Assembly (NCBI GenBank): GCA_030649025.1
Contig: JAUSGO010000004.1
Span: 6,824-70,823 of the forward strand
From: a bacterium
GTDB taxonomy: Bacteria; Patescibacteriota; Minisyncoccia; JAUYLV01
DNA length: 64,000 nt
Direction: 5' to 3'
In this document: in pieces, positions 280 to 55,835 of the stretch
Layout: each line of letters opens with the position of its first letter
Position numbering within the stretch: the stretch's first letter is position 1
Position numbers and translations under genes: made by a program
Notes under the pieces: generated by a model
What the model was told of the DNA's origin: nothing
What the model saw: the letters and a program-made list of their open reading frames with translations, nothing else
The model's database searches: none

Positions 280-519
280 TCAGACGGGGTCGTATCCTCC
301 TTGGGAGAACGGGTTACAGCGCATTATTCGCCAAGCGCTTCGCGCTATCCCTTTCAAAAAACCCTTTGTTTGTATCGCCTGCTTAGTGTACGTCGAGCAC
401 GACGGATAATATTTACACGACCCGCTCAAAAATGGCAACGAGATGATTCCGTGGTCCGGCGAGACGGTCTTTTGGTATAACTCAATAAGATTTGTTGCGG
501 TTTTTGAGAGTGTTCGCAT
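280..519 (-). CDS. yidD: membrane protein insertion efficiency factor YidD
   Basis: 79-aa ORF with a YidD-like C-terminal ...[13 protein letters not shown]. Overlaps the rnpA 3' end, as in the canonical rpmH-rnpA-yidD-yidC order. Confidence 0.8.
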
Positions 520-832
520 GATAAGTAAGCTCCTTTACTAAATCAAAAAAATCTGCGTCCTGGATGTTTTTTGAAGGAAAGATAAGCAGATCATATCCGA
601 AGAGGGCGGGCATACATTTCTTGACAACCTCCCTTGTTCTTCGTTTTATAGAGTTTCTTGTAACCGCCTTTTTTGCTTCTTTGGCGCTCACTATAACGGC
701 TATGCGAGGCGGCGCTATCCTTGTTGTTCTTGAAGCCTTCAGGCGGAAAAATCTTCCTCGGGTCTGCGTTCCTTTTTCCAACACAAAAAGAACGTCCTGT
801 CTCTTTTTCAACCTGTTAATGCCGGAGAGCAT
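482..832 (-). CDS. rnpA: RNase P protein component
   Basis: Internal Met of the 180-aa ORF: [21 protein letters not shown]...[27 protein letters not shown], the RnpA signature. 117 aa. Confidence 0.85.
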
Positions 833-849
833 AGAAGGCGGTTTCAGGA

Positions 850-987
850 CTACACAACTAACTTCTTTCTGTGTTTCCGGCGTCGTCTTTGCACCACCCG
901 TCTTCCGCCGGTACGTCGCATGCGTTTTAAAAACCCGTGTACACGACGCCTTCTGCGCTTCTTTGGTTTGTAGGTAAGGGCTAGCAT
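850..987 (-). CDS. rpmH: 50S ribosomal protein L34
   Basis: Not in the ORF track (45 aa). Reverse translation [45 protein letters not shown] matches the L34 consensus; 17 nt upstream of rnpA. Confidence 0.9.
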
Positions 988-1176
988 TCTTGTAAAGAAT
1001 ACATTCTTCGTGTATGCTCGTCAATAGTTAATTTTCATCCACAACTTCTGCACAGATGGGGATTATTTTTTAAGTTTTTTTCTGCGTGCTATACTACCTT
1101 CCGTTGTGTGAATTTATTTTCATTGTTATTGCCTGCGTTCTTCGCATGCATTATAAGATAATTTTTTCTCCTGCAT
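988..1176. promoter_or_regulatory. rpmH-dnaA divergent intergenic region; dnaA promoter with a DnaA-box-like TCATCCACA (about 1049-1057)
   Basis: Position between divergent rpmH and dnaA. One 8/9 match to TTATCCACA. Confidence 0.35.
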
Positions 1177-2571
1177 ATGACCAATGAAGATCTCTGGCAG
1201 ACCGTGTTGGGCGAAATGGAACTTACGCTTTCCAGGGCAAATTTCGTTACCTGGTTTAAAAACACTTCTATTTCTGCTCACGAAAGCGGCGCCGTGATCG
1301 TCAGCGTCCCGAACGGGTTCACACAAGAGTGGTTGGAGAATAAATATAACAAATTTATCCTTAAATCGTTGCGCAAAACATCTCCGGACGTTAAAGAGGT
1401 GAAGTATGTCATAGGCTCCTACAGTCCGCCTCCGCGCCGAGAACACCTTGATGTCTCCCCCGAGACTCAAATGGACAAGGAATCTTTTGCCTACGACGAC
1501 CAGCTTAGCGTCGGTGAACTTGAACAGCCGGTTCTGGTAAATAAAGCGAACCTCAATACCCGCTATACCTTTTCTTCGTTTATCGTTGGTTCTTCAAACG
1601 AATTGGCAAACGCAGCTTCCCTCGCCGTTGCAGGAAGCCCCGGTACGGTATACAACCCCCTACTTATCTATGGGGGAGTTGGGCTTGGAAAAACGCATCT
1701 TATGCAGGCGGTCGGAAACGAAATACTCGCAAAGCGCCCCGGAGCGCAAGTTAAGTACATAGCCGCGGAACGTTTTACGACGGAGCTTATCAATTCGCTC
1801 CAAGATAAGCGTATTGAAGAATTTAAACAGCGCTATCGGGCTTGCGATGTGCTTATTATCGACGATATCCAATTTCTTTCCGGAAAAGAAAAGACTCAGG
1901 AGGAGTTTTTTCATACCTTTAATCATCTTTTTGCCAACAATAAACAGATCATCCTTTCTTCCGACCGCCCTCCAAAAGCCATAGGAGGCATCGAGGAGCG
2001 ACTACGGAGCCGTTTTGAGGGCGGCATGGTCGCCGATGTTGGCATACCAGAGCTTGAGATGCGTGTTGCGATTCTAAAGAAAAAATCAGAAGAAAGAAAT
2101 ATTGCGCTTCCCGATGACGTGCTTATGTATATTTCTACGAAAATCCAGAAAAATATTAGAGAGCTCGAGGGAGCGCTTAATAAAATAGCCGCTTACGTAC
2201 AACACACCAAAACAGTTCCTTCTCTTAAAATAGCAGAGAAAATCCTCTCAAGCCTTATAAATCAGCCAAAACGGATGATTTTGGTACGGGATATTATGAA
2301 GGCTGTGTCGGATTTCTACGATATCGGCCTCGATGAAATTGTAAACCAGTGCCGGAGAAAAGAGGTGGTAAGACCGCGACAAATAACCATGTATCTTCTG
2401 CGCGAAGAGCTGCAAAGCTCTTATCCGGCCATTGGAGCCAAGCTCGGCAACAGAGATCATACGACCGTTATGTACGGCTGCGAAAAAATTACAAAAGAAC
2501 TGGAAAACAACCTTACGCTACAGGAAGAGGTCCGGCTCATTCGGGAGCGCCTGTATGCAAACATGGGATAG
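1177..2571 (+). CDS. dnaA: chromosomal replication initiator DnaA
   Basis: Walker A GVGLGKTHLMQAVGNE, Walker B/sensor LIIDDIQFLSGKEKTQEEFFHTFNHL, and a C-terminal DNA-binding domain. Confidence 0.97.
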   Translation: MTNEDLWQTVLGEMELTLSRANFVTWFKNTSISAHESGAVIVSVPNGFTQEWLENKYNKFILKSLRKTSPDVKEVKYVIGSYSPPPRREHLDVSPETQMDKESFAYDDQLSVGELEQPVLVNKANLNTRYTFSSFIVGSSNELANAASLAVAGSPGTVYNPLLIYGGVGLGKTHLMQAVGNEILAKRPGAQVKYIAAERFTTELINSLQDKRIEEFKQRYRACDVLIIDDIQFLSGKEKTQEEFFHTFNHLFANNKQIILSSDRPPKAIGGIEERLRSRFEGGMVADVGIPELEMRVAILKKKSEERNIALPDDVLMYISTKIQKNIRELEGALNKIAAYVQHTKTVPSLKIAEKILSSLINQPKRMILVRDIMKAVSDFYDIGLDEIVNQCRRKEVVRPRQITMYLLREELQSSYPAIGAKLGNRDHTTVMYGCEKITKELENNLTLQEEVRLIRERLYANMG

Positions 2572-2791
2572 AGTGTGTACAAAAAAAATAATTTTATTTT
2601 TCTCTTTTTTTGTTCACTGAAATATTCCGCTTATAGCCAGGCCCTCCACACCTTTATAAAATTCTTACAGTATATTTTTTGTATAAACAGCGATAAAAAA
2701 CTATTTTCCCCTTTTCCACAGCGCATAATAATAATCATTATAAATATTATATATAAAGAAATCTTATTATATATAATACCGGTGTATAACT
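2572..2791. promoter_or_regulatory. predicted oriC / DNA-unwinding element in the dnaA-dnaN spacer
   Basis: 220-nt spacer that is strongly AT-rich (ataataataatcattataaatattatatataaagaaatcttattatatataat), with a DnaA-box-like TTTTCCACA at about 2717-2725. Classical location for oriC. Confidence 0.45.
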
Positions 2792-3889
2792 ATGAAATTT
2801 TCCTGCATCAGATCATATTTTCTAAACGCGGCAAGCTCCGTTGAAAGAATAATAGAAAAAAATAGCACGCTTCCCATTCTTCAAAATATTTTTATTAAAG
2901 TTGAAAAAGGGAAGACCACACTTTCCACGACAAACCTTGAAATAGGCATACATGCTTCATTCCAATCAAAAGCGGACGAGGAAGGATCTTTTACCGTTCC
3001 TGCAAAAACCCTATTGAATTTTCTTATGTATGTGGATACAGAAAAGATAACAGTCCACACAAAAGGAACAAATCTTATTATAAATGCCGGCTCTCATAAG
3101 GCGGACATTAAAGGACTTGACGCAACTAATTTTCCTATCATTCCTGAAATAACCGAAAGCTTTTCTACTTCTCTGCCTGCAGAAGAATTTTTTTCAGCTC
3201 TTTCTTCCCTAACTTTTCTTTCTTCAATGGGAGACCTGCGGCCGGAGCTTGCGGGAGTTTTTTGCAGTTTTGAAAAAAACCAACTGCGCATGGCTGCAAC
3301 AGACAGTTTTCGTCTCGGAGAATTTATTTTAAAAATCCCTACCCCAAAGAAAGAAACGACCTGTATTATACCTACGCGAACCGTAAACGAAATAATCCGC
3401 TTATTCACCGGGGCCGAAGCCGTTACCTTAAAACTAAGTGCCAATCAAATTCTCATCAAAACACAGGAAAAAGAGCTCATCTCCCGCCTCATCGAAGAAA
3501 AATACCCCGATTATACGGCAGTTATTCCGACATCAAGCACAACCAGAACATATCTTAAAAGGGAAGAGTTTATGCAGGCCTTGCGCGCCGCAAGCGTTTT
3601 TAGCGGAAAGACGCGTGAGGTAAAAATTAATATTTTTCCGGAAGAAAAAAAATATATTATAGAAAGCCGCAATGCCGACATAGGAGAACACAAAAGCGAA
3701 ATTTCTTGCGACGGAAACGGAAAAAACGTGACGGTATCGGTTAACTATCAGTATTTCCTTGATGCCCTCGGGAAGATTTCCGACGAAATGATTTCTTTTG
3801 AGAACAACAACGAAACAGACCCCATTCTTCTTAAGGGGCTTGCGGGCGCCGGACCAAGATATATTATTATGCCGTTGCGCTCGTATTAG
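2792..3889 (+). CDS. dnaN: DNA polymerase III beta sliding clamp
   Basis: 365 aa immediately after dnaA. N-terminus MKFSCIRSYFLNAASSVERIIEKNSTLPILQNIFIKVEKG is typical of DnaN. Confidence 0.95.
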   Translation: MKFSCIRSYFLNAASSVERIIEKNSTLPILQNIFIKVEKGKTTLSTTNLEIGIHASFQSKADEEGSFTVPAKTLLNFLMYVDTEKITVHTKGTNLIINAGSHKADIKGLDATNFPIIPEITESFSTSLPAEEFFSALSSLTFLSSMGDLRPELAGVFCSFEKNQLRMAATDSFRLGEFILKIPTPKKETTCIIPTRTVNEIIRLFTGAEAVTLKLSANQILIKTQEKELISRLIEEKYPDYTAVIPTSSTTRTYLKREEFMQALRAASVFSGKTREVKINIFPEEKKYIIESRNADIGEHKSEISCDGNGKNVTVSVNYQYFLDALGKISDEMISFENNNETDPILLKGLAGAGPRYIIMPLRSY

Positions 3890-4260: not shown

Positions 4261-6429
4261 TTATTTTTTGGAAAAACCCGTCTGGCCCTGTGTTATCGCG
4301 TCCCGTATCATTTGCTCGGAAAACTCGGGACACGTAGGTAGTTTTTCCGGAGGCACGTCTTGGTAAAGATCCTCCATGATGGTTTTTGCGATCTTTCCGG
4401 GTCCTTTGCCGCCCGGTTCTTTGTGCGGATCGTTTACGCCATGTGCATCGTCTCCGATAGAGGTGTTGTCTTCAAAACCAAGCCACACAAGCACCGTATA
4501 TCCTTTCTGGCCACACGTGGAGATGCTGATCCAAGCATCTTTGAAGTTATTTGTTGTTCCTGTTTTTGCAATTACGGGGAAAGGAAGAGGCGGTCCGTTT
4601 TTAAGCCAGGGGCTTCCTTTCCCGAGTATGTAGTGCGCAGTGCCGTGTTGCCACAGTATCGGGCCGCGAAGCATGGCAAGAAGCTTGGCCTCAGTGTCTT
4701 GAGGAATTACTTGCGCACAATCGTTTTTAAAGTCCTTCCCAGGAAATTCTTCCGGTATTCCTGTCGGATACATCACCCGATCAACAATACGCCCCTTGTC
4801 AATTAAGCACCCGCCGTTTGCGATTGTTGCGTATGCAAGCGCGATATTAAGCGGCGTAGCTTCCACGGCGCCAAGTGCTGCCGTTGGATAGTGATGAACG
4901 TCTCCTTTTGCGTCGACGTAAGACGAAAAATTCCCCTTCAGACCCGCTTGTTTGGCAATCCTTATCACATCGTTAATGTCGACCATATGCAGAACCGCCC
5001 ACATTGTCGCAGCGTTCCGTGATTCCGCAAGCGCAAGCCAACAAGGAATTATCCCTTTGTGCTTTCCGTCGTAATTATTTATTGTTTTTCTTTTGCCATT
5101 GCCCATTTTCACACTTACATATCCATCATTGAGCAGACAGGGTTTTTCGTCGTCTCTGCCGATTCCCCACCCATGAGCAAGCAAGGCAAGGTAGACAAAC
5201 GGCTTGAACGCGGAGCCGAGCTGGCGATTTGCCTGCCAGAGATAGCGAAATCCATACCAAGGATTTGTTCCGCCCTCAGAGACAGCGACAATGTCGCCGT
5301 TGTTTTTAAGAACCAAAGCAAGCCCCGTTATCTTTTTTTGTTTTTCCGGCTGGTCGTAATGGCGCTGGCGGTATGCCAGAAGACCATTTTCCAAAGCCGC
5401 ATCCGCGATGTTCTGAACGGACGCATCGATGGTTGTGAAGACGGCCGGCCCAAAAAGATATAAGCGGTCCCGGTCTTCCTTGGAAAGGCTTTCAAGGGCA
5501 AAGCCGACCGCTGACGGAGCAAAGCTGCGCGCGTTCCACGGATTAGTGCGCAGGTCCCTTACTCCAAGAGGTTTTTTAATGTACGTCTCAAATTGATCTC
5601 GCGTAAGATAGCCGTTCCTATGCATCCGATCGAGTACGATGAATCTTCGTCCAAGAGCCTCTTCCTCGTTCCCTTTTTTGAAGGGAGAGTATTTGACGGG
5701 ATTTTGGATGAGTGCCGCAAGAAGCGCGGCTTCGTGCGGCTCTAGATCCGCAAGCTTTTTCCCGAAATAGAAATCTGACGCCGCAACAAATCCGTATTGC
5801 GGTGCGCCTCCTTTGGGACTCGGGAACCTTCCAAGAAAGACCAATGAAGCGTACTGTTCAAAAATTACCTCTTTGGCTTTTCTCCGATTCCATCCGAAGT
5901 GGCGCCAGAGCACAAACTCCCAACGAAGCGCCATGCGCGCTTCCCGGATTTTTCTAAACCACCTTTCGTGTTTCCCAGATGGTTTTTTATGCCATTCGCG
6001 ATACATCTCTTCCTGTAAAAAACGCATCCTAACAACCTGCTGGGTCATCGTTGAAGCTCCGCCCTTAATTTTCCCCGCAAGAGAATTCTCGATTGCCATA
6101 ATAATCATTCGAAACGGATTAACTCCCGGATGCCACCAAAACTCTTTATCCTCTGCGGAAAGTACGGCGTATTCAAGGGTTTTTGGAATATTTTTGTAAG
6201 GAACGAAAGTCCGGTATTCTCTACCGAACTCTCCAAGAGGCACGCCATCCGATGTGATTATTTTCCCGGAAAGCTGTGGAGAAAATCCGAACATTTCTTC
6301 TTCGGTCGGCAGATCGTATGGAAGCACGTAAACCCACAATGCAACGAACACAGAAAAAAACGTCAGAATGGTCGCTATCCTGTGTTTTTTTACCGTTCTC
6401 CAAAGACGTTCGACGCGCAGAAAACGCAT
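4261..6429 (-). CDS. class A penicillin-binding protein (glycosyltransferase GT51 + transpeptidase), PBP1A family
   Basis: N-terminal TM, GT51 motifs EDKEFWWHPG and GGASTMTQQ. Transpeptidase motifs SAFKPF (SxxK) and KTGTT. Confidence 0.9.
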   Translation of the reverse strand: MRFLRVERLWRTVKKHRIATILTFFSVFVALWVYVLPYDLPTEEEMFGFSPQLSGKIITSDGVPLGEFGREYRTFVPYKNIPKTLEYAVLSAEDKEFWWHPGVNPFRMIIMAIENSLAGKIKGGASTMTQQVVRMRFLQEEMYREWHKKPSGKHERWFRKIREARMALRWEFVLWRHFGWNRRKAKEVIFEQYASLVFLGRFPSPKGGAPQYGFVAASDFYFGKKLADLEPHEAALLAALIQNPVKYSPFKKGNEEEALGRRFIVLDRMHRNGYLTRDQFETYIKKPLGVRDLRTNPWNARSFAPSAVGFALESLSKEDRDRLYLFGPAVFTTIDASVQNIADAALENGLLAYRQRHYDQPEKQKKITGLALVLKNNGDIVAVSEGGTNPWYGFRYLWQANRQLGSAFKPFVYLALLAHGWGIGRDDEKPCLLNDGYVSVKMGNGKRKTINNYDGKHKGIIPCWLALAESRNAATMWAVLHMVDINDVIRIAKQAGLKGNFSSYVDAKGDVHHYPTAALGAVEATPLNIALAYATIANGGCLIDKGRIVDRVMYPTGIPEEFPGKDFKNDCAQVIPQDTEAKLLAMLRGPILWQHGTAHYILGKGSPWLKNGPPLPFPVIAKTGTTNNFKDAWISISTCGQKGYTVLVWLGFEDNTSIGDDAHGVNDPHKEPGGKGPGKIAKTIMEDLYQDVPPEKLPTCPEFSEQMIRDAITQGQTGFSKK

Positions 6430-9990: not shown

Positions 9991-10095
9991 AAACTCGTTA
10001 TGTCGTTAACGAGTTGGCGAGCTCCCGCCTGAGGCGGATCCGCCTTTGGTGGAAATATGCCGATAGAATTGACCCGTTAACGCGTTAATGAAAAT

Positions 10096-10563
10096 TTACC
10101 AGGAGAAGTGTGCAAATGCCTTGTTCGCTTCCGCCATCCGGTGAGTGTCCGCCTTTTTCTTTATCGCGTATCCCGTGTTATTGGCCGCATCGATAAGCTC
10201 TTCCGCAAGCTTTTGCGCCATAGGCTTGCCCTTCCGGGTCCTTGCCCCGTTAATAAGCCATTTGCACGCCAAAAACATTTTCCGTTCTCCCCGCACTTCA
10301 CGCGGAACCTGATAGTTCGCGCCGCCCACGCGTCTGGATTTAAGTTCAAGCTGCGGCGTAGCGTTTTTTATGGCGGCGTCAAAGGCTTCAAGGGGATCCT
10401 TTTTTGTTTTTTCGCCCATGCGGACCAGCGCCGTATACATAATTCGCTCCGCAGTGGATTTCTTGCCCCGCTCCATAAGGTAATTAATAAATTTTGCGAC
10501 GACGGCGCTCGCGTACTTTGCGTCCGGCTGAATGGTTGTTTTTAGTTTTCGTTTACGCCTCAT
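10096..10563 (-). CDS. rpsG: 30S ribosomal protein S7
   Basis: 155 aa, S7 consensus throughout. Confidence 0.95.
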   Translation of the reverse strand: MRRKRKLKTTIQPDAKYASAVVAKFINYLMERGKKSTAERIMYTALVRMGEKTKKDPLEAFDAAIKNATPQLELKSRRVGGANYQVPREVRGERKMFLACKWLINGARTRKGKPMAQKLAEELIDAANNTGYAIKKKADTHRMAEANKAFAHFSW

Positions 10564-17103: not shown

Positions 17104-17174
17104 GCGGGTATCGTATACCGGTATTATGCCACCTTGCCAAGGTGGAGAAACGGGTTCAATTCCCGTTACCCGCT
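17104..17174 (+). tRNA. tRNA-Gly (anticodon GCC), no encoded CCA
   Basis: Manual fold: acceptor GCGGGTA/TACCCGC, anticodon stem CCACC/GGTGG with loop ttGCCaa, T-stem ACGGG/CCCGT with loop TTCAATT. D-stem is weak (3 pairs) but the D-loop contains GG. Confidence 0.7.
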
Positions 17175-17292
17175 CACCAAAATAAAACTGCCCCTTGTGA
17201 GTAGTTTTATTTTGGTCGAACTTGGGGAATTAAAGGGAGGTCCGGTGGACTTCCCAGGTTTTTCTGAGCCGGAGGAACGAGGAGAGGAAAAG

Positions 17293-19321: not shown

Positions 19322-19355
19322 ATGCCACCTTGCCAAGGTGGAGAAACGGGTTCAA
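19322..19355. repeat. 34-bp exact copy of the tRNA-Gly anticodon-arm-to-T-loop segment (ATGCCACCTTGCCAAGGTGGAGAAACGGGTTCAAT)
   Basis: Identical to 17128-17161 inside the tRNA-Gly. It ends exactly at the T-loop, where the fragment at 17293 begins. Confidence 0.85.
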
Positions 19356-19435
19356 TAAAATGTTCGTAGGCGACGACTGCTTGACTTTGAGATAAATCTT
19401 GCTAGGATAAGGATGACTTTACGGAGGCAAGAAAG

Positions 19436-26759: not shown

Positions 26760-26821
26760 ATAGCTATACTAGAAGGGTACAAGCCGCCTTAATAAAGGGT
26801 GGTTTTTTGATTAAGAAATTT

Positions 26822-26930
26822 AAAAATCAAAGATCAAAAATCAAAATTAAGGAGTGAAAATTTTTCTTCAAAAAACTTTCACGATACTCCAAAATTTTGC
26901 ATTTTGAGATTTGCATTTTGAATTTTACTA
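26822..26930. repeat. ~110-nt intergenic repeat element, copy A (before nusA)
   Basis: About 85% identical to 50869-50995. Contains ATCAAAA tandems, AAGGAG, a hairpin GTGAAA..TTTCAC and TTTTGCATTTTGAG x2. Confidence 0.85.
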
Positions 26931-36832: not shown

Positions 36833-36887
36833 CGCGAAGCGCGTGCGCCGAATAGGCGCATCCCGTTGCGCCCGCAGCGCTTCGCCT
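36833..36887. repeat. GC-rich structured repeat R1 (CGCGAAGCGCG-GCGCCGAATAGGCGC-ATCCC...AGCGCTTCGCC)
   Basis: Shares a ~55-90-nt pattern with 37573-37628. Contains nested hairpins (gcgcc-gaata-ggcgc; gcgaagcgc/gcgcttcgc). Confidence 0.7.
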
Positions 36888-36987: not shown

Positions 36988-37431
36988 TTGCCCCATAAAT
37001 ACTGGAAGAAGGAAGACGAGAAGGCCGTAAAACTCGCAAGATCTTATCCGGAGCTCTGTACGGTTGCAAAACGCGTTCTTGGGAGAATCGGGGAAGACGT
37101 TTGTTTCGTATGCGGACCCATCACCACGGGCGGCGCCGGATCCGTAAAGAAAAATATCGTTGTATTGAAGCGGCGCATTACACTTCTTCGCAAAGAAGGC
37201 AAAAACGTTTTTGATCAGATGGCGTTTGAAAAAGCGCTTTGGCGTATAGAAAAGCTGGTGAGGGGCTCGGAAAAAGACCTTCTCAATGGATTTTATCGGC
37301 CTCTGTTTGAGCTGGGAAAGATCAAAACATTTTATTTCGTTTTCGGATGGGAGACCTCATACGGGGCGCAGTGGGAATATAACCAGGCACGGCGCCTGGG
37401 CATCCGGACGGTTTTTCTTGGGAAATTATAG
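36988..37431 (+). CDS. hypothetical protein (147 aa) flanked by direct GC-rich structured repeats
   Basis: ORF with CxxC (CFVCGP); no confident family. Confidence 0.45.
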   Translation: MPHKYWKKEDEKAVKLARSYPELCTVAKRVLGRIGEDVCFVCGPITTGGAGSVKKNIVVLKRRITLLRKEGKNVFDQMAFEKALWRIEKLVRGSEKDLLNGFYRPLFELGKIKTFYFVFGWETSYGAQWEYNQARRLGIRTVFLGKL

Positions 37432-37572
37432 ACACGCCGGAAATCACCCTTCTTTAGGAGGGGATTTTTTATTGTTTCGTCTGCCGAATGGCAGCAACGA
37501 AACAATAACCCAGTTCCAATTTTGCCTTTCATTTCTTGCTATACCGCGAATAAAGATTTGCATTTTTTAACA

Positions 37573-37628
37573 CCCGCGAAACGCGGGCGCCGAATAGGCG
37601 CATCCCATCATGCGCGAAGCGCTTCGCC
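37573..37628. repeat. GC-rich structured repeat R2 (CCCGCGAAACGCGG-GCGCCGAATAGGCGC-ATCCC...GCGAAGCGCTTCGCC)
   Basis: Direct repeat of R1 about 740 nt downstream. The conserved core is GCGCCGAATAGGCGCATCCC plus AGCGCTTCGCC. Confidence 0.7.
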
Positions 37629-37714
37629 AATGTTCTGCCACGCAAAATTGGTGCTCGGGTATTTTTTAAGGCAATTTCCAAAACAACTTCTCCCTGCTAC
37701 ACTGGGGTCGTGCT

Positions 37715-40294: not shown

Positions 40295-40321
40295 CTCATT
40301 GGGGGAGATCTCGTCTCCCCT
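40295..40321 (+). terminator. rho-independent terminator (ggggagatctcgtctcccc + tatttt)
   Basis: 7-bp GC stem followed by T-rich sequence. Confidence 0.55.
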
Positions 40322-40357: not shown

Positions 40358-40385
40358 TTGACACCGCTTCTTTTATGTATATAAT
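40358..40385 (+). promoter_or_regulatory. sigma70-type promoter of the tuf/S10 operon: -35 TTGACA, 16-nt spacer, -10 TATAAT
   Basis: Perfect consensus hexamers about 130 nt upstream of tuf. Confidence 0.65.
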
Positions 40386-40476
40386 TAGATAGTAATTGTG
40401 AGGTATTTATAAATATTGGCATATTTTAGGCAAAAACAGTAAACAAATAACAAAAAGCAAATAACAAGATCATCCC

Positions 40477-40504
40477 GCTATTTGCTATCTGCTATTTGCT
40501 ATTT
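40477..40504 (+). repeat. 4x heptamer tandem repeat (GCTATTT/GCTATCT/GCTATTT/GCTATTT) 12 nt upstream of the tuf ATG
   Basis: Direct reading. Related array TGCTATT/TGCCATC/TGCTGTT/TGCTATC before rplO. Confidence 0.8.
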
Positions 40505-40516
40505 ACTGAAATCGTT

Positions 40517-42147: not shown

Positions 42148-42327
42148 GGGGGATTTGAATGCGCAGCAGCGACGGAGAATATACGAAAAATAACGAATAG
42201 TTTTTAGCGGGCAATGTTCGGTGGACAAACTCTAATGAGGAAGTCCGGTTCACAACCTATTTAATGTTCTAAAGACTCGTCTTGCGGGAATTGTTTACCG
42301 GGCGATGTCCGGTTTTTTTTATTGCTT

Positions 42328-42930: not shown

Positions 42931-42987
42931 ATTATGCTTAATTACGGATTACGCATTACGAATTAATTCGCAATACGCAATTCGCAA

Positions 42988-43632
42988 TTGAGTGATTCAG
43001 CAATGCAGGCAAAACTCTACAACCAAGACGGAAAAGAAGCCGGGACAACCGAATTGCCCGATGCGATATTTAATGTTCCGCAAAACTCCGCACTGGTAAA
43101 GCAGGTTGTCGAGGTGGAGCGGGCTAATAGACGAAAACCCCTTGCCCACACCAAGGTACGCAGCGAGGTGCGCGGCGGAGGCAAAAAACCGTGGAAGCAG
43201 AAGGGCACGGGAAGGGCGCGTCATGGCTCAATTCGTTCGCCGCTGTGGAAGGGAGGCGGAACAACTTTCGGGCCGCGGAACGAGACAGTTTTTAAAAAGC
43301 ACATCAATAAAAAAATGAGACGAAAGGCTCTTTTTATTGTACTTTCGGCAAAAGTAAAGGACGGGGAATGCGTTTTTATTGATCGGATACAGCTCAACGA
43401 GTCCAAGACAAAGGCGTTTTCTAAAATCATAAAAAATTTTAAAGAAACATTGGGCAGGTCGCTTGCATTTGTAAGTTCGGGTGATGCCGTGCTTGAACGG
43501 GCCGCGCGCAATATTGAAAAACTTTCCGTATACCAAGCCTCTCAGCTCAATGCGCTCGATTTGTTACAAAAGAAGTTTCTCTTTATACCGAAGTCAGCAA
43601 TCGAAGTTATTGAAAAAACTTTTTTGAAATAA
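42988..43632 (+). CDS. rplD: 50S ribosomal protein L4
   Basis: ...RGGGKKPWKQKGTGRARHGSIRSPLWKGGG. Confidence 0.93.
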   Translation: MSDSAMQAKLYNQDGKEAGTTELPDAIFNVPQNSALVKQVVEVERANRRKPLAHTKVRSEVRGGGKKPWKQKGTGRARHGSIRSPLWKGGGTTFGPRNETVFKKHINKKMRRKALFIVLSAKVKDGECVFIDRIQLNESKTKAFSKIIKNFKETLGRSLAFVSSGDAVLERAARNIEKLSVYQASQLNALDLLQKKFLFIPKSAIEVIEKTFLK

Positions 43633-44956: not shown

Positions 44957-44964
44957 ATTATTCA

Positions 44965-44987
44965 GTTAACGCATTTGCGCGTTAACG
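44965..44987. promoter_or_regulatory. 23-nt hairpin motif GTTAACGCATTTGCGCGTTAACG (8-bp inverted repeat GTTAACGC/GCGTTAAC) preceding the 4x octamer array before rpsS
   Basis: A near-identical motif GTTAACGAATTTGCGAGTTAACG occurs at 54041-54063 before map. Confidence 0.6.
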
Positions 44988-45000
44988 GGTTCCGTAAAAA

Positions 45001-45032
45001 CTCGTTAACTCGTTAACTCGTTAACTCGTTAA
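45001..45032 (+). repeat. 4x octamer tandem repeat CTCGTTAA ending 2 nt before the rpsS GTG start
   Basis: Direct reading. Confidence 0.85.
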
Positions 45033-45034
45033 CG

Positions 45035-45376
45035 GTGTCACGAAGTCTTAAAAAGGGCCCGTATATTGAACCAAAATTGCTTAAAAAACTAGGCAGGGTT
45101 CGTATTGGCGACAAGGTAGTGATAAAGACGTGGTCGCGCGCCTCCACAATCTCCCCCGAGATGGTCGGCTTTACCATCGGCGTACATAACGGCAAGATTC
45201 ATATTCCGATATTCATTACCGAGGAGATGGTAGGTCATCGACTTGGCGAATTTTCTTCAACGCGCAAGTTTGTTCGTCACGGCGGACGCATGCAAAAAGA
45301 ACAAGAACTGAAAGCCAAGGAAGCCGAGCAGGAATCCGAAAAGGCAGCAAAAACAGCGGCCACAGAGAAGAAATAA
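45035..45376 (+). CDS. rpsS: 30S ribosomal protein S19 with a Lys/Glu/Ala-rich C-terminal tail
   Basis: GTG start [18 protein letters not shown]... Confidence 0.93.
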
Positions 45377-45466
45377 AGATCAGCTTATAGGTTATAGCTG
45401 CTAACTTGTAGGGATGAAGAAAGAACGAGTTAAGCTCAAAAAGCTATAAGCTCTAAGTCATAAGGT

Positions 45467-46686: not shown

Positions 46687-46745
46687 GTTATAGCTGATAG
46701 GTTTTAGCTTGTAGAGTTTTGAGGGATGCGCATACCCTCACTCGA

Positions 46746-46773
46746 AGCTATAAGCTATAAGCTATAAGCTATA
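46746..46773 (+). repeat. 4x heptamer tandem repeat AGCTATA ending 2 nt before the rplP ATG
   Basis: Direct reading: g-aagctata x4 - ac - ATG. Confidence 0.85.
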
Positions 46774-46775
46774 AC

Positions 46776-47180: not shown

Positions 47181-47211
47181 TTGATCTCTATTTAGGATTT
47201 AAAGTAAGCCC

Positions 47212-47523: not shown

Positions 47524-47604
47524 CAAGACTTGTAGCCTCTTAACTTCTTAGCTTCTTGGGCGGATTCCTAAAAAGCTGAAAGTTAAAAGCTGGAAGTTGT
47601 TTGA

Positions 47605-49616: not shown

Positions 49617-49860
49617 GGGCTTTGTCTGCGTTTCGGAGCGCCTTTGTCGCGAACGAAACGCAGGAACAAAACCTTACCCCCTCACTCATCCCGGCAAGAC
49701 ATTCTCGATGTATGTAGCTGGAAAGGCGAAGCCGCCTTCGGCTCTCGGCCCTATATATCGAAAAGCTCTCGTAAGGATGAGTGAGGGGGTGCTCACTGTT
49801 GTAGCTAAAAATCATTCGCTCAACATTGGGTCTCGCTCATAATTTTTAGACAACATTGGC
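49617..49860 (+). other. 244-nt structured spacer between rpsH and rplF, with a 15-bp perfect inverted repeat (49677-49691 / 49775-49789) and additional hairpins; candidate cis-regulatory RNA or ncRNA
   Basis: CCCCCTCACTCATCC ... GGATGAGTGAGGGGG enclosing 83 nt. A 10-bp hairpin CTGCGTTTCG/CGAAACGCAG lies just after the rpsH stop. CAACATTGG is repeated twice before the rplF ATG. Confidence 0.45.
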
Positions 49861-50409: not shown

Positions 50410-50494
50410 AGCCTTTAGCCGATTAGCCCACTAGTTTCCTAGGAATAATAACCTAGTTGATCTAATAGGCTCATAGGCTAGTAAGCTAAACACC

Positions 50495-50872: not shown

Positions 50873-50995
50873 AAATCAAAAGTCAAAAATCAAAAGTCAA
50901 AAATCAAAATTAAGGAGCGAAAGTTTCTCTTGCAAGAAAAACTTTCACGATATTCCCAAGTTTTGCATTTTGAGTTTTGCATTTTGAATTTGTAA
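50869..50995. repeat. ~125-nt intergenic repeat element, copy B (between rplR and rpsE)
   Basis: About 85% identical to 26822-26930; starts at the rplR stop and ends at the rpsE ATG. Confidence 0.85.
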
Positions 50996-50996
50996 A

Positions 50997-51488
50997 ATGG
51001 CCAGACAACAACATCGGCAAGAAAAACAAAAAGGCGAGTTTGAACAAAAAACACTCGAAGTCAGCCGCGTGACACGCGTCGTTGAAGGCGGAAAGCGTTT
51101 TTCTTTTCGCGCTGCGCTGGTTATCGGCGATCTCAGGGGGCGCGTAGCTTTGGGTGTCGCAAAGGGCGCCGACGTCTCGCTTGCCATTGAGAAGGCGGCA
51201 TTCCGCGCGAAGAAAGATCTTTTTTCCGTTCCGCTCACGAAGGAGGGGTCTATTTCTCATGAGGTGCGTGCGAAATACGGCAGCGCCAAGGTCTTGTTAA
51301 AGCCGGCGGCAGAGGGCCGCGGTATTGTGGCTGGTGGCGCCATGCGCACGGTATGCGCGCTTTCGGGAATTCGACATGTAACCGGGAAAATACTTAATTC
51401 TACAAACAAGATAAACATTGCGCGGGCCACCATTGCGGCGCTCAGACAACTTAGACCGTCAAAAGAGCAAACAACAAAAAACAAATAA
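50997..51488 (+). CDS. rpsE: 30S ribosomal protein S5
   Basis: ...VTRVVEGGKRFSFRAALVIGDLRGRVALGVAKGADV. Confidence 0.95.
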   Translation: MARQQHRQEKQKGEFEQKTLEVSRVTRVVEGGKRFSFRAALVIGDLRGRVALGVAKGADVSLAIEKAAFRAKKDLFSVPLTKEGSISHEVRAKYGSAKVLLKPAAEGRGIVAGGAMRTVCALSGIRHVTGKILNSTNKINIARATIAALRQLRPSKEQTTKNK

Positions 51489-51503
51489 CAGGCTTCAGCC
51501 GCT

Positions 51504-51531
51504 TGCTATTTGCCATCTGCTGTTTGCTATC
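51504..51531 (+). repeat. 4x heptamer tandem array TGCTATT/TGCCATC/TGCTGTT/TGCTATC ending 5 nt (CGTTA) before the rplO ATG
   Basis: Direct reading; same family as the array before tuf. There is no L30 gene between rpsE and rplO. Confidence 0.8.
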
Positions 51532-51536
51532 CGTTA

Positions 51537-53293: not shown

Positions 53294-53377
53294 AGGCTTA
53301 TAGCTTTTGGCCCATAGCTCATAGGTTTCATGCGGCTACCACGATTCTTCCTGTCGGCTATTAATCATTAGTTATCG

Positions 53378-54037
53378 GTGATCAGTTTGGATATGCCGTT
53401 AACCGTTATTTTTCTCGGGAAGGCCGGAGCGGGCAAAGGAACCCAGGGGCACCTGCTCGAGCAAAAAATTAAGATGAAAGTCGTCGGCACCGGAGACCTA
53501 CTCCGAGCGTTTACGGCTCTTGATATACCTGCGGCGCGGCGTATTGAAAAAGAGGTCTTGCTTGCGGGCAAACTTGCGCCTTCATGGTTTGTGAGCTACT
53601 TATGGATGCACGAGGTGCTTCATGCCGAACCCAAAGAAAGCATTCTTTTTGACGGCAGTCCGCGCATGCTCCCTGAGGCGCTCCTTATAGACGATGTGCT
53701 TGATTGGAATGGCCGCATACCCCCCAAAGTCTTTCTATTGGACATTAGCGACGAAGAGGCAACGCGGCGGCTGCTTTCGCGAAAAATGTGCGAAATGTGT
53801 AAAAAGATCTATCAGGGAGATTCTGCCGAGGTTGTATCTGGGGTGTGTCCGTGCGGTGGAAAACTTGTAAAACGTCGTGATGATGTTCCGAAGGCCATCC
53901 AGAGCCGCCTGGCGTATTTCAAGACGGATGTTGTGCCGGTGATTGAACATTATCAAAAAAAAGAATGGCTCATCCGTATCAATGGCGAACAGTCGCCAGA
54001 GAAGGTGCACGAAGACATTCTTAAGCATCTTGGTTAG
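53378..54037 (+). CDS. adk: adenylate kinase with a zinc-binding lid
   Basis: P-loop GKAGAGKGTQ; lid CEMCKK...CPCGG. Confidence 0.93.
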   Translation: MISLDMPLTVIFLGKAGAGKGTQGHLLEQKIKMKVVGTGDLLRAFTALDIPAARRIEKEVLLAGKLAPSWFVSYLWMHEVLHAEPKESILFDGSPRMLPEALLIDDVLDWNGRIPPKVFLLDISDEEATRRLLSRKMCEMCKKIYQGDSAEVVSGVCPCGGKLVKRRDDVPKAIQSRLAYFKTDVVPVIEHYQKKEWLIRINGEQSPEKVHEDILKHLG

Positions 54038-54040
54038 TCG

Positions 54041-54063
54041 GTTAACGAATTTGCGAGTTAACG
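54041..54063. promoter_or_regulatory. second copy of the 23-nt GTTAACG hairpin motif (GTTAACGAATTTGCGAGTTAACG), preceding the 4x octamer array before map
   Basis: 21/23 identity to 44965-44987. Confidence 0.6.
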
Positions 54064-54072
54064 CGTTATTTT

Positions 54073-54104
54073 AACCCGTCAACCCGTCAACCCGTCAACC
54101 CGTT
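54073..54104 (+). repeat. 4x octamer tandem repeat AACCCGTC (last unit AACCCGTT) ending 5 nt before the map GTG start
   Basis: Direct reading. Same octamer family AAC(T/C)CGT(T/C) as the array before rpsS. Confidence 0.85.
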
Positions 54105-54109
54105 AATGG

Positions 54110-54871
54110 GTGTTTCAGCCCAAATCTCCACAGGAAATAGCGATAATGGCACGCGGCGGAGCGATACTCGCAAAAACATTCCGAAGGCTACGGCACGCGG
54201 CATATACGGGAATCACCACAAAAGAACTTGACGAGCTTGCGCGCAAGCTCGTTTTGTCATACGGCGCAAAGCCCGCGTTTCTCGGCTACGCATCGGGCGC
54301 TTCAGGTAAGAAATTCCCAGCATCTCTCTGCGTCTCGGTTGGCGATGAAGTTGTGCATGGTATTCCCGGAACTCGCTTCTTGAAAGATGGTGATATCGCG
54401 GGACTTGATCTGGGCGTACTGTACAATGGTTTTTATACGGATTCTGCGATTACGATAGGCATTGGCGCCATTTCAAAGAAAGCCCAGCGACTCATTGAGG
54501 TAACGGAGCGGGCGTTATATCTTGGCATTGACATGGCCCGCCTTGGCAATACTACTGGAGATATTGGGCAGGCGGTGCAGTCCTATGTGGAGGCACAGGG
54601 ATTTTCCGTTGTGCGGGATCTTGTGGGGCATGGCATAGGGAGGGAGCTTCACGAAGAACCTCAAGTCCCGAATTATGGGAAAGTGGACCGCGGTATAAAA
54701 CTTGAAGAAGGCATGGTGGTCGCCATTGAACCCATGGTGACCGAGGGCAGTTGGCAGGTTGTGCTTTCTCCGGACGGCTGGACGTATAAAACCGCGGACG
54801 GCTCTCTCTCGGCGCATTTTGAACACACCGTAGCAATCACCAAAAAAGGCCCGAGAATTCTTACGAAGTAA
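54110..54871 (+). CDS. map: methionine aminopeptidase type I
   Basis: GTG start; SPQEIAIMARGGAILAK; metal ligands D..D..H..E..E. Confidence 0.93.
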   Translation: MFQPKSPQEIAIMARGGAILAKTFRRLRHAAYTGITTKELDELARKLVLSYGAKPAFLGYASGASGKKFPASLCVSVGDEVVHGIPGTRFLKDGDIAGLDLGVLYNGFYTDSAITIGIGAISKKAQRLIEVTERALYLGIDMARLGNTTGDIGQAVQSYVEAQGFSVVRDLVGHGIGRELHEEPQVPNYGKVDRGIKLEEGMVVAIEPMVTEGSWQVVLSPDGWTYKTADGSLSAHFEHTVAITKKGPRILTK

Positions 54872-54946
54872 TCCCTCGTCAAGTGCGAGGGATTTTTGTA
54901 TAATAAATAAACACCCTACGATTTAGACATTAAATATTCTCTGCCT

Positions 54947-55759: not shown

Positions 55760-55835
55760 TTTTCAATGAATCAATTTTCAAAGCGTCCTCCAAAATTTTT
55801 ATTTGAAAATTAAAAATTGAAAATTAAGAATTGTC

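Follow-up and report, generated by a model that had tools for sequence, protein, structure and literature searches.

The short tandemly repeated repetitive (STRR) heptamers of heterocystous cyanobacteria are comparable to the elements described here, which occupy the spacers before rpsS, map and many other genes in a 64,000-nt stretch of a Patescibacteria (candidate phyla radiation, CPR) genome (assembly GCA_030649025.1, contig JAUSGO010000004.1, positions 6,824 to 70,823; below, the window). Their nearest published analogue is the TAACTGA heptamer repeat (MacGregor 2015, PMC4679880), which occurs in marine Beggiatoaceae and in some Cyanobacteria and Bacteroidetes. TAACTGA units of 7 nt form tandem sets of two to six that are mostly intergenic, lie within ribosomal-protein operons and usually lack a Shine–Dalgarno (SD) sequence; they are oriented to the start codon, end about 1 nt upstream of it and are strain-specific in distribution (PMC4679880). 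The elements in the window, which we call cassettes, likewise consist of tandem 7–8-nt units, are intergenic, abut the start codon and mostly go without an SD sequence. TAACTGA, however, is a single unit genome-wide that is predicted not to fold and has 1 inverted set in 170 (PMC4679880), whereas the units of the cassettes vary by junction and every array has an inverted partner, so that a hairpin reaches from stop to start.

Cassettes also resemble MITEs, the miniature transposable elements with inverted repeats (Correia/CREE, ERIC and RUP), and the repetitive extragenic palindromes and bacterial interspersed mosaic elements (REP/BIME). All are small, non-coding, non-autonomous, inverted-repeat stem-loops, with dispersed copies, presence/absence polymorphism among relatives and co-transcription with flanking genes (PMC3184786). 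As in MITEs, the inverted repeats fold to a long stem-loop and the whole is shorter than about 400 bp. Unlike MITEs, the cassettes have no target-site duplications that we could see, and the window holds no transposase or REP-associated tyrosine transposase (RAYT). They differ from both MITEs and REPs in that their families are tiny (2–13 members) and sequence-diverse, their arms are internally tandem-repetitive and they are concentrated in essential translation operons. REPs are 20–40 bp, GC-rich, high in copy number and RAYT-associated, whereas the cassettes are AT-rich and 60–170 nt long.

Two further comparisons concern mechanism. Ribosome termination structures (RTSs; Chemla et al. 2020, PMC7518266) are, like the cassettes as predicted from sequence, stable mRNA structures right after an operonic stop codon, but they are a statistical folding bias of ordinary sequence, whereas the cassettes are repeated elements (PMC7518266). 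In Escherichia coli, stable structure directly after stop codons inhibits re-initiation and insulates cistrons, and it is depleted at spacers shorter than 25 nt (PMC7518266). Stems and multibase compensatory changes can arise in a single event of template switching during replication (Monttinen and Loytynoja 2022, PMC8794818), a mechanism that offers a DNA-replication origin for reverse-complement repeats. This model fits the cassettes because they are quasi-palindromes without sense-strand bias, although it was developed on rRNA and miRNA stems, not inverted tandem arrays, and slippage within the arms would be an additional process here. A literature search gave no description of such cassettes in Patescibacteria, and inverted-array cassettes appear not to have been described before. 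We lean, with modest confidence, toward reading them as duplicative palindromic cassettes that are generated at the DNA level, are co-transcribed as stop-proximal stem-loops and dampen or gate initiation downstream.

The GTTAACG family

The family has at least three copies: one each in the leaders of rpsS and map, and a third between rpsG (S7) and fusA (EF-G). Coordinates of the copies and their parts, including the arrays reported by Tandem Repeats Finder (TRF) with 100% matches in the first two, are as follows.

44957..45034, + strand: GTTAACG-family cassette copy 1, the entire rplB-rpsS spacer (sequence, TRF, fold)
Parts of copy 1, + strand: 5' arm 44964–44991, holding the 23-mer; 3' arm (AACTCGTT)x4.4 at 44999–45033; rpsS GTG at 45035
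54038..54109, + strand: GTTAACG-family cassette copy 2, the entire adk-map spacer (sequence, TRF, alignment, fold)
Parts of copy 2, + strand: 23-mer 54041–54063; array (AACCCGTC)x3.9 at 54073–54103; map GTG at 54110
9991..10095, - strand: GTTAACG-family cassette copy 3, from the rpsG stop to the fusA start (Pfam S7 and EF-G, fold, arms aligned separately)
Parts of copy 3, - strand, in the sense direction: TAA-attttca-TTAACGCGTTAACGGGTC (5' arm) ... AACTCGTTAACGACATAACGAGTT (3' arm)-tttgttt-ATG

The original prediction had noted a shared 23-nt motif followed by tandem octamers in the two leaders, and these sequences are confirmed. The motif reads GTTAACGCATTTGCGCGTTAACG at 44965–44987 and GTTAACGAATTTGCGAGTTAACG at 54041–54063, identical at 21 of 23 positions, and its degenerate pattern, GTTAACGNATTTGCGNGTTAACG, has two exact matches in the window against 0.00 expected from 100 dinucleotide-preserving shuffles. 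The similarity is not confined to the motif: the rpsS and map spacers align end to end, with a mean column identity of 85%. Also confirmed is that the arrays run into GTG codons, which are the genuine starts of rpsS and map, as the N-termini align with those of orthologues. RpsS begins VSRSLKKGP, residue for residue the counterpart of MSRSLKKGP in the ATG-starting orthologues of four relatives, and there is no in-frame start further upstream.

The leaders had been described as bipartite, with a hairpin formed within the 23-mer and a separate octamer tract. This division does not stand. Positions 44964–44991 are 79% complementary to 44999–45026, and the 23-mer is itself made of three degenerate octamers (GTTAACGN ATTTGCGN GTTAACG) that are the reverse complement of the downstream octamer unit. 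Arm complementarity and the minimum-energy fold, in which the 23-mer with its flank pairs with the array, support one hairpin per leader, with the supposed parts as its arms; the rpsS leader element is a single quasi-palindrome spanning the rplB-rpsS spacer. Copy 1 contains the proposed 8-bp inverted repeat, GTTAACGC/GCGTTAAC, in perfect form (-11.1 kcal/mol for the local hairpin), but in copy 2 it is reduced to a 6-bp GTTAAC palindrome (-5.0 kcal/mol).

Structure prediction, which had been suggested for both leaders, separates them. Copy 1 folds as sense RNA at -25.7 kcal/mol (z = -4.39), with 0 of 200 shuffles as stable. Copy 2 does not: its sense strand reaches -16.8 kcal/mol (z = -0.68), no better than shuffles, versus -35.1 kcal/mol (z = -5.61) for the antisense strand. 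The sense-strand stem of copy 2 has one A.C mismatch in each repeat unit, and two U-to-C changes per unit have been homogenised across the array, eight concerted changes in all, each of which breaks sense pairing.

The idea that the leader is a duplicated, cassette-like element would have been weakened had no further copies existed, and it is upheld by the copy between rpsG and fusA. That copy resembles copy 1 in its repeat unit, its GTTAACGGGT arm and the flank at its stop codon, TAAATT(A/T)TTCA, has the same orientation relative to its own genes as copies 1 and 2, and folds at -34.2 kcal/mol (z = -3.92). Its loop carries an inserted GC-rich hairpin, owing to which MAFFT misaligned the full copy, and the arms were therefore aligned separately.

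For comparison we used contigs of RplB relatives at 71–82% identity and contigs of other genomes; L081 and L093 are one metagenome-assembled genome (GCA_030699565.1), L091 is GCA_964551575.1 and L004 is from the genome of CAYVZN010000002.1. The rplB-rpsS spacer, 78 nt in the window, is 8 nt in L083 and in L086, 10 nt in L090, 14 nt in L081 and, with unrelated sequence, 51 nt in L089. Because these spacers of 8–51 nt hold no array hairpin, the rpsS-leader copy is, as judged from this comparison, a recent gain. At rpsG-fusA, L093 and L092 hold other sequences and L091 is rearranged; no genome but this one is thus known to carry the GTTAACG family. In L091 about 1.6 kb of unknown open reading frames (ORFs) lie between rpsG and fusA, a rearrangement or insertion at the junction that holds copy 3 in the window, and a second copy of the first ~57 nt of fusA (ATGAGAGACTATCCCCTCGAACGC...) stands about 150 nt upstream of its real start (3690–3860).

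Searching public metagenome contigs for the 23-mer gave one match, inside a NadE-like coding sequence; the motif is all but confined to this genome. The similarity in that contig (L087 5598–5640, - strand) is longer than the pattern, GAGTTAACGGATTTGCGGGTTAACGGGTTACG against CAGTTAACGCATTTGCGCGTTAACGGGTTCCG in the window, and may be a coincidence or a distant relationship.

A check for variation of octamer copy number between strains, by slippage, had also been suggested. It bears on the notion of a phase-variable simple-sequence repeat that would tune rpsS and map expression. The arrays are indeed perfect, and slippage is the likely process that homogenises them. Nevertheless, the Logan assembly L088 (SRR13727527, same organism) is identical over 1,859 nt that include both arrays, a single comparison in which both assemblies possibly stem from one study; both genes serve essential housekeeping functions; and arrays are uniformly about four units long across many cassettes and genomes. 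We consider phase variation barely credible.

Cassettes at other junctions and in relatives

All spacers of the window were inspected and folded against shuffles. About 15 of them, in the str, tuf-S10-spc and nusA units, have a common plan of stop codon, degenerate array, loop, inverted array and start codon, and the GTTAACG family belongs to this larger class of quasi-palindromic cassettes of about 60–170 nt. The cassette-bearing junctions are rplC-rplD, rplW-rplB, rplB-rpsS, rpsS-rplV, rpsC-rplP, rpsQ-rplN, rplF-rplR, rplR-rpsE, rpsE-rplO and adk-map; further cassettes lie in the tuf and nusA leaders, and weaker ones at secY-adk and after a glycosyltransferase gene.

26816..26930, + strand: nusA leader cassette, paralogue of 50873–50996 (TRF; NusA identified)
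40436..40510, + strand: tuf 5' leader cassette, (AACAAAT)n / (GCTATTT)n, paralogue of the rpsE-rplO cassette; promoter upstream
42931..43002, + strand: rplC-rplD cassette, (AATTACG)n / (AATTCGC)n; the same junction is 12–21 nt in L083 and L086
44054..44125, + strand: rplW-rplB cassette, (AGCTTATT)n / (CTAAAAAG)x4.2, z ~ -8; the rplB start is GTG
45377..45466, + strand: rpsS-rplV cassette, AGCT family (spacer fold, alignment)
46687..46775, + strand: rpsC-rplP cassette, 3' arm (AAGCTAT)x4.3; -40.1 kcal/mol, z = -8.0
47524..47604, + strand: rpsQ-rplN cassette, AGCT family (TRF, fold, alignment)
50410..50494, + strand: rplF-rplR cassette, (AGCCTTT)n / (TAGGCTCA)n (fold)
50873..50996, + strand: rplR-rpsE cassette, (AAAATCAAAAGTC)n / (GTTTTGCATTTTGA)n, with nested central hairpin, nusA-leader paralogue (TRF, fold, alignment)
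51462..51536, + strand: rpsE-rplO cassette, 5' arm overlapping the rpsE 3' end (TRF, inverted repeat, alignment)
53294..53392, + strand: secY-adk spacer, degenerate AGCT-family cassette; the orthologous L081 spacer is well formed
55760..55835, + strand: weak TTTTCAA/TTGAAAA-type cassette, 3' of the operon terminator, from the glycosyltransferase gene to a DUF4921 gene (TRF, fold)

Repeat units are unrelated between junctions (AGCTTATT/CTAAAAAG, AAGCTAT, AAAATCA/TTTTGCA, AACAAAT/GCTATTT, AATTACG/AATTCGC and others). The window holds at least eight different units, each paired with an inverted partner array, and the arrays have a period of 7–8 nt and 3–5 copies. A strict definition that asks for both z <= -3 and a TRF array is satisfied by 7 of 20 operon spacers versus 1 of 27 elsewhere, the one being the tuf leader (Fisher p = 0.007). 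At rpsC-rplP, the stem reaches exactly from stop codon to start codon and the loop holds a nested GAGGG/CCCTC hairpin.

Some cassettes are paralogous over their entire length. The nusA leader and the rplR-rpsE spacer match throughout, central hairpin and loop included (mean column identity 88%), as do the tuf leader and the rpsE-rplO spacer (80%). Families in the window have two or three copies per 64 kb, 65–88% identical, and the AGCT family has 13 alignable members from three genomes. At rpsE-rplO the cassette supplies the rpsE stop codon, which lies inside the AACAAAT-type array, and the 5' arm (51462–51488) covers the last rpsE codons. Because the 3' end and stop of the gene lie inside the arm, gain of the cassette probably remodelled the S5 C-terminus. 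We also considered whether the start-proximal arm is the functional part. In the window, 10 of 14 modules have their more perfect array in the 3' arm, but the count is 23 versus 21 over 44 modules from four genomes, and the idea was dropped.

A second dispersed class has a GC-rich core of about 190 nt, found at rpsH-rplF in the window and 5' of rpsL in L091 (~1020–1203) at about 90% identity; both copies finish in ACATTGGC-ATG and so abut the start. The rpsH-rplF spacer (49617–49860) is 244 nt long and GC-rich, folds at -105 kcal/mol (z = -6 to -11), has 38-nt inverted arms at 49676–49713 and 49753–49790 and matches no Rfam family. Separately, a GC-rich palindromic pair at 36833–36886 and 37575–37628, 85% identical (CGCGAAGCGCG...GCGCTTCGCC), flanks an ORF at 36988–37431. 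This pair forms a REP-like family of its own, separate from the array cassettes, and the spacer 37432–37714 is strongly structured (z = -5).

Among relatives, the architecture recurs with other units in L081/L093, L083, L091, L004 and L038, whereas L089 and L090 have compact spacers and no array hairpin at any junction seen. L081/L093 has many cassettes, partly unlike those of the window in unit and position: (CATGAAG)x4/(GTTTCAA)x4 before rplP, four AGCTTCTT/AAGCTAC cassettes, and a TTTTCAA-type cassette at both adk-map and rpsG-fusA. Thus, adk-map is GTTAACG-type in the window versus TTTTCAA-type in L081. The rpsL-rpsG spacer is 18 nt in the window, an AGCT-type cassette in L093 and a TACGAA-type cassette in L091, whose S7 is 92% identical. 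In distant lineages, L004 has inverted-array cassettes at about 13 operon junctions and L038 has fewer. The window, L081 and L004 have in common cassettes at rplW-rplB, rpsS-rplV, rpsC-rplP, rpsQ-rplN, rplR-rpsE and rpsE-rplO.

This diversity bears on the proposal that the GTTAACG hairpin and octamers are a sequence-specific regulatory leader, a site through which one shared RNA- or DNA-binding factor would control rpsS and map together. The 21/23 identity of the 23-mers, with 0 matches expected by chance, is what such a site would look like; a third related copy precedes fusA, and the start-adjacent TAACTGA arrays have been proposed to bind S1, Csp (cold-shock proteins) or CsrA (PMC4679880). 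However, the architecture is repeated with unrelated units at about 12 further junctions, the octamer units differ at 2 of 8 positions between copies without the paired 5' arm following, the relatives' junctions are compact or carry different cassettes, and the 23-mer is not conserved elsewhere in public metagenomes. Because the architecture recurs with unrelated units, shape or origin, not sequence, is indicated. With the plan repeated at about 15 junctions, the regulatory-leader proposal is not supported; a shared-factor site is the least supported of the functional readings, and we regard it as very unlikely.

Stem geometry, strand asymmetry and origin

Geometry was measured on 34 intercistronic cassettes from three genomes. 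Their median length is 81 nt (interquartile range (IQR) 74–101), with a median of 25 base pairs and free energies of -11 to -50 kcal/mol. The first paired base follows the stop codon by a median of 2.5 nt (within 8 nt in 31 of the 34), and the last precedes the start codon by a median of 6.5 nt (IQR 4–9). Across the cassettes, which range from 63 to 167 nt and are about 65% A+T, the arms are 71–86% complementary over 20–33 nt. The stems are chains of 4–10-bp helices, and each repeat unit contributes one interruption, an internal loop of 1x1 or 2x1, which is what separate homogenisation of each arm would yield.

If selection acted on the RNA, sense-strand stems enriched in G.U pairs might be taken as its proof, and we looked for this signature. 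The trend ran the opposite way: 81 G.U pairs in sense versus 112 in antisense (p = 0.03), or 49 versus 82 (p = 0.005) in the window's own clade. Moreover, the antisense strand folds better than the sense strand in 27 of 39 modules (p = 0.024). Because antisense folds are stronger, sense G.U pairs are not enriched and the changes in the map copy break sense pairing, we infer from the sequences that both the origin of the cassettes and the upkeep of their symmetry are DNA-level processes.

Stems are nonetheless retained while units change. The rpsC-rplP stem is ATAGCT/AGCTAT in the window and ATGGC/GCCAT in L083, and the rpsQ-rplN stem passes from TAGC/GCTG to TGGCT/AGCCA between orthologous junctions. 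In the 13-member AGCT-family alignment, where the apical helix alone is informative because MAFFT loses register among arrays of unequal copy number, one pair is AU in six members and GC in six, and the next pair shows five double changes. Such paired changes need no RNA-level selection, because template switching is documented to produce them in one step.

The origin that we propose would have three components. First, whole cassettes would be copied to new junctions, as the paralogous pairs, the filled versus compact sites and the occurrence of different families at one junction suggest. Second, the arms would be homogenised by replication slippage, consistent with perfect arrays and one stem mismatch per unit. 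Third, template switching between the arms could create or restore inverted symmetry.

Possible effects on transcript and translation

The cassettes lie largely in one transcription unit, which runs from tuf through map (40.5–54.9 kb) between a predicted promoter and a predicted terminator.

40358..40385, + strand: consensus sigma-70-type promoter, TTGACA-16-TATAAT, 12/12, at the head of the tuf-to-map unit
54870..54894, + strand: intrinsic-terminator-like hairpin and T-run immediately 3' of map, at the end of the cassette-bearing unit

Terminator-like sites occur at 40300, 42297 and 54870; no terminator-like or promoter-like site coincides with the sense-strand cassettes, nor is there enrichment. 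On that ground the cassettes were rejected as intrinsic terminators, attenuators or promoters. In Rfam at the gathering threshold, two tRNAs match and no cassette does, and a permissive search adds sub-threshold animal pre-miRNA-like matches alone, with none at the fusA copy. As no covariance model matches, ribosomal-protein autoregulatory leaders and other Rfam families are likewise rejected.

Translation starts in this unit and its relatives are unusual in two respects. Four-base SD cores are very rare before the operon genes of the clade (1 of 25, 0 of 17, 0 of 10, 1 of 7 and 3 of 10 genes). In addition, GTG or TTG replaces the ATG of orthologues in 10 of 26 cassette-preceded genes of the window's clade versus 0 of 43 others (p = 1.6e-5) or, on a conservative count, in 8 of 24 versus 0 of 43 (p = 1.1e-4). 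The starts concerned are GTG at rplB (44126), rpsS (45035) and map (54110) in the window and, in L081, GTG at 2486, 3216, 7233 and 7767 and TTG at 10472 (rpsC, rplP, rpsE, rplO and map). The association is strong in this clade but does not recur in L004 (0 of 13), and GTG/TTG starts were therefore rejected as a general property of cassettes. It may reflect an altered mode of initiation, collateral mutation beside unstable repeats or re-tuning of expression.

On the reading that we favour, the cassettes would be co-transcribed within the one promoter-to-terminator unit, and an interrupted stem of about 25 bp would open about 2–3 nt past the upstream stop and close about 6 nt before an SD-less start. 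Each could then act like a stop-proximal RTS, so that a junction which was ancestrally tight and coupled by re-initiation would become structured. Downstream initiation would be dampened or gated, with the SD-less start exposed mainly once a terminating ribosome has melted the base of the stem. Selection, or an A-rich composition, may tend to soften the stems of the sense strand.

Several observations weigh against this account. Among 40 ORFs of the window scanned against Pfam, there is no transposase, RAYT or IS200/605 TnpA, and no target-site duplications are evident by eye, either at the filled rplB-rpsS junction compared with L083, L081 and L090 or at the flanks of all three GTTAACG copies; distribution is thus the sole argument for calling the cassettes mobile. 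It would be odd for a purely selfish element to be enriched in operons that are essential and highly expressed, and cassettes recur at the same junctions in unrelated lineages; together, these points hint at selection for function. The persistence of stems at orthologous junctions through paired changes, A-T to G-C, is predicted equally by RNA-level selection. The tuf and nusA copies stand in 5' leaders without an upstream ORF, so gating by termination cannot be their role there. Finally, the analogy to RTSs comes from experiments in E. coli and may not transfer to an SD-less CPR organism. That the cassettes are a tolerated by-product of repeat dynamics is also a serious possibility.

A different view takes the same stems as selected RNA punctuation: RNase III-type processing sites or exonuclease barriers that would divide the tuf-to-map transcript into separately stable cistrons. 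Phage T7 early mRNA, REP/BIME stabilisers and Correia elements are parallels. With about 25 bp and small internal loops, the stems have the size of RNase III substrates, and the permissive Rfam matches, being generic pre-miRNA-like hairpins, have a similar shape. The cassettes are strictly intercistronic inside one transcription unit, are present at nearly all L004 junctions and keep their stems at orthologous junctions through paired changes, while the 5'-leader copies of tuf and nusA would suit a stabilising role; effects of REP/BIME on mRNA stability are documented (PMC3184786). Set against this are the weaker fold of the sense strand in 27 of 39 modules and its lack of G.U enrichment, the unstructured sense strand of the map copy (z = -0.68), relatives that manage with compact spacers and no cassettes, and the absence of an RNase III gene within the window. 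On balance, punctuation of this kind seems to us unlikely, though it deserves consideration.

The tight, consistent geometry of the stem bases, 2.5 nt from the stop and 6.5 nt from the start, admits another interpretation. A closed stem would set the stop codon beside the SD-less start, and a terminating ribosome could be handed across in a shunt-like manner, which would keep stoichiometric coupling over spacers of 60–170 nt. SD cores are absent across the clade, and stems interrupted every 6–8 bp would be easily unzipped by a ribosome. The shift from ATG to GTG/TTG that accompanies cassette gain in the window's clade (8–10 of 24–26 versus 0/43) would be expected if initiation there no longer depended on de novo start selection. 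Yet strong post-stop structures in E. coli lower re-initiation rather than promote it (PMC7518266), the GTG association fails in L004 (0/13), and the tuf and nusA copies have no upstream ORF to bridge from. Further, the geometry is partly trivial for a cassette inserted into an ancestrally tiny spacer, and our literature search gave no experimental precedent for hairpin shunting in bacterial operons. Bridging thus seems doubtful to us, and its wider form, in which several SD-less Patescibacteria lineages use evolvable hairpin cassettes as ribosome-shunt or hand-over devices that spread as ready-made intercistronic junctions, is marginally more doubtful still. If true, it would constitute a new mode of translational coupling in which start-codon identity is less important, and could explain the ATG-to-GTG shifts.

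The surrounding gene order has other features. The best RpsC matches among species representatives are about 50% identical and Parcubacteria-like. In the 174-nt rpsJ-rplC spacer, a hairpin (ACCGGGCGATGTCCGGT) followed by T8 at 42276–42321, just 5' of rplC, is terminator- or attenuator-like; its sequence is near-identical in L090 and L093, without an Rfam match, and it may be a conserved S10-operon-type leader or attenuator. Neither the window (47181–47211) nor L081 (3620–3622) has rpmC (L29) between rplP and rpsQ, whereas L090 does (5638–5832); rpmD (L30) is absent between rpsE and rplO (51489–51536); and the unit terminates after map, with the glycosyltransferase gene next instead of infA-rpmJ-rpsM. 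The window adjoins the replication origin, with rnpA (- strand), dnaA and dnaN at 482–3889. Assuming an origin near 1.1 kb, the str operon (7.9–11.1 kb, - strand) would be head-on to replication and the tuf-to-map unit co-directional. Lastly, 35 nt of the 3' half of tRNA-Gly (17104–17175) are exactly duplicated 2.2 kb downstream (17126–17160 and 19322–19356). Genes for a NUDIX protein, a hypothetical protein and a chagasin-like peptidase inhibitor lie between the two, and the pair resembles an att scar from the integration of a small element.

Few bacterial gene arrays are as compact and conserved as the ribosomal-protein operons, in which the usual gap of a few nucleotides serves to couple translation. 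Most operon junctions of this genome, and independently those of at least one distant Patescibacteria lineage, have been expanded to uniform hairpins of about 80 nt, which consist of inverted short tandem repeats, have a fast turnover and form small paralogous families. Such spacers call for caution in annotation, as they can pass for regulatory leaders, small RNAs or CRISPR-like arrays. To our knowledge, gene expression in candidate-phyla bacteria is almost unstudied. If the duplicative, DNA-level cassettes that we favour are merely tolerated, slippage and template switching build long stems de novo in the most constrained part of a reduced genome, and these organisms initiate translation without an SD sequence beside strong structure. 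If they are used, they would represent an unrecognised means of insulating, processing or coupling cistrons in candidate-phyla bacteria.

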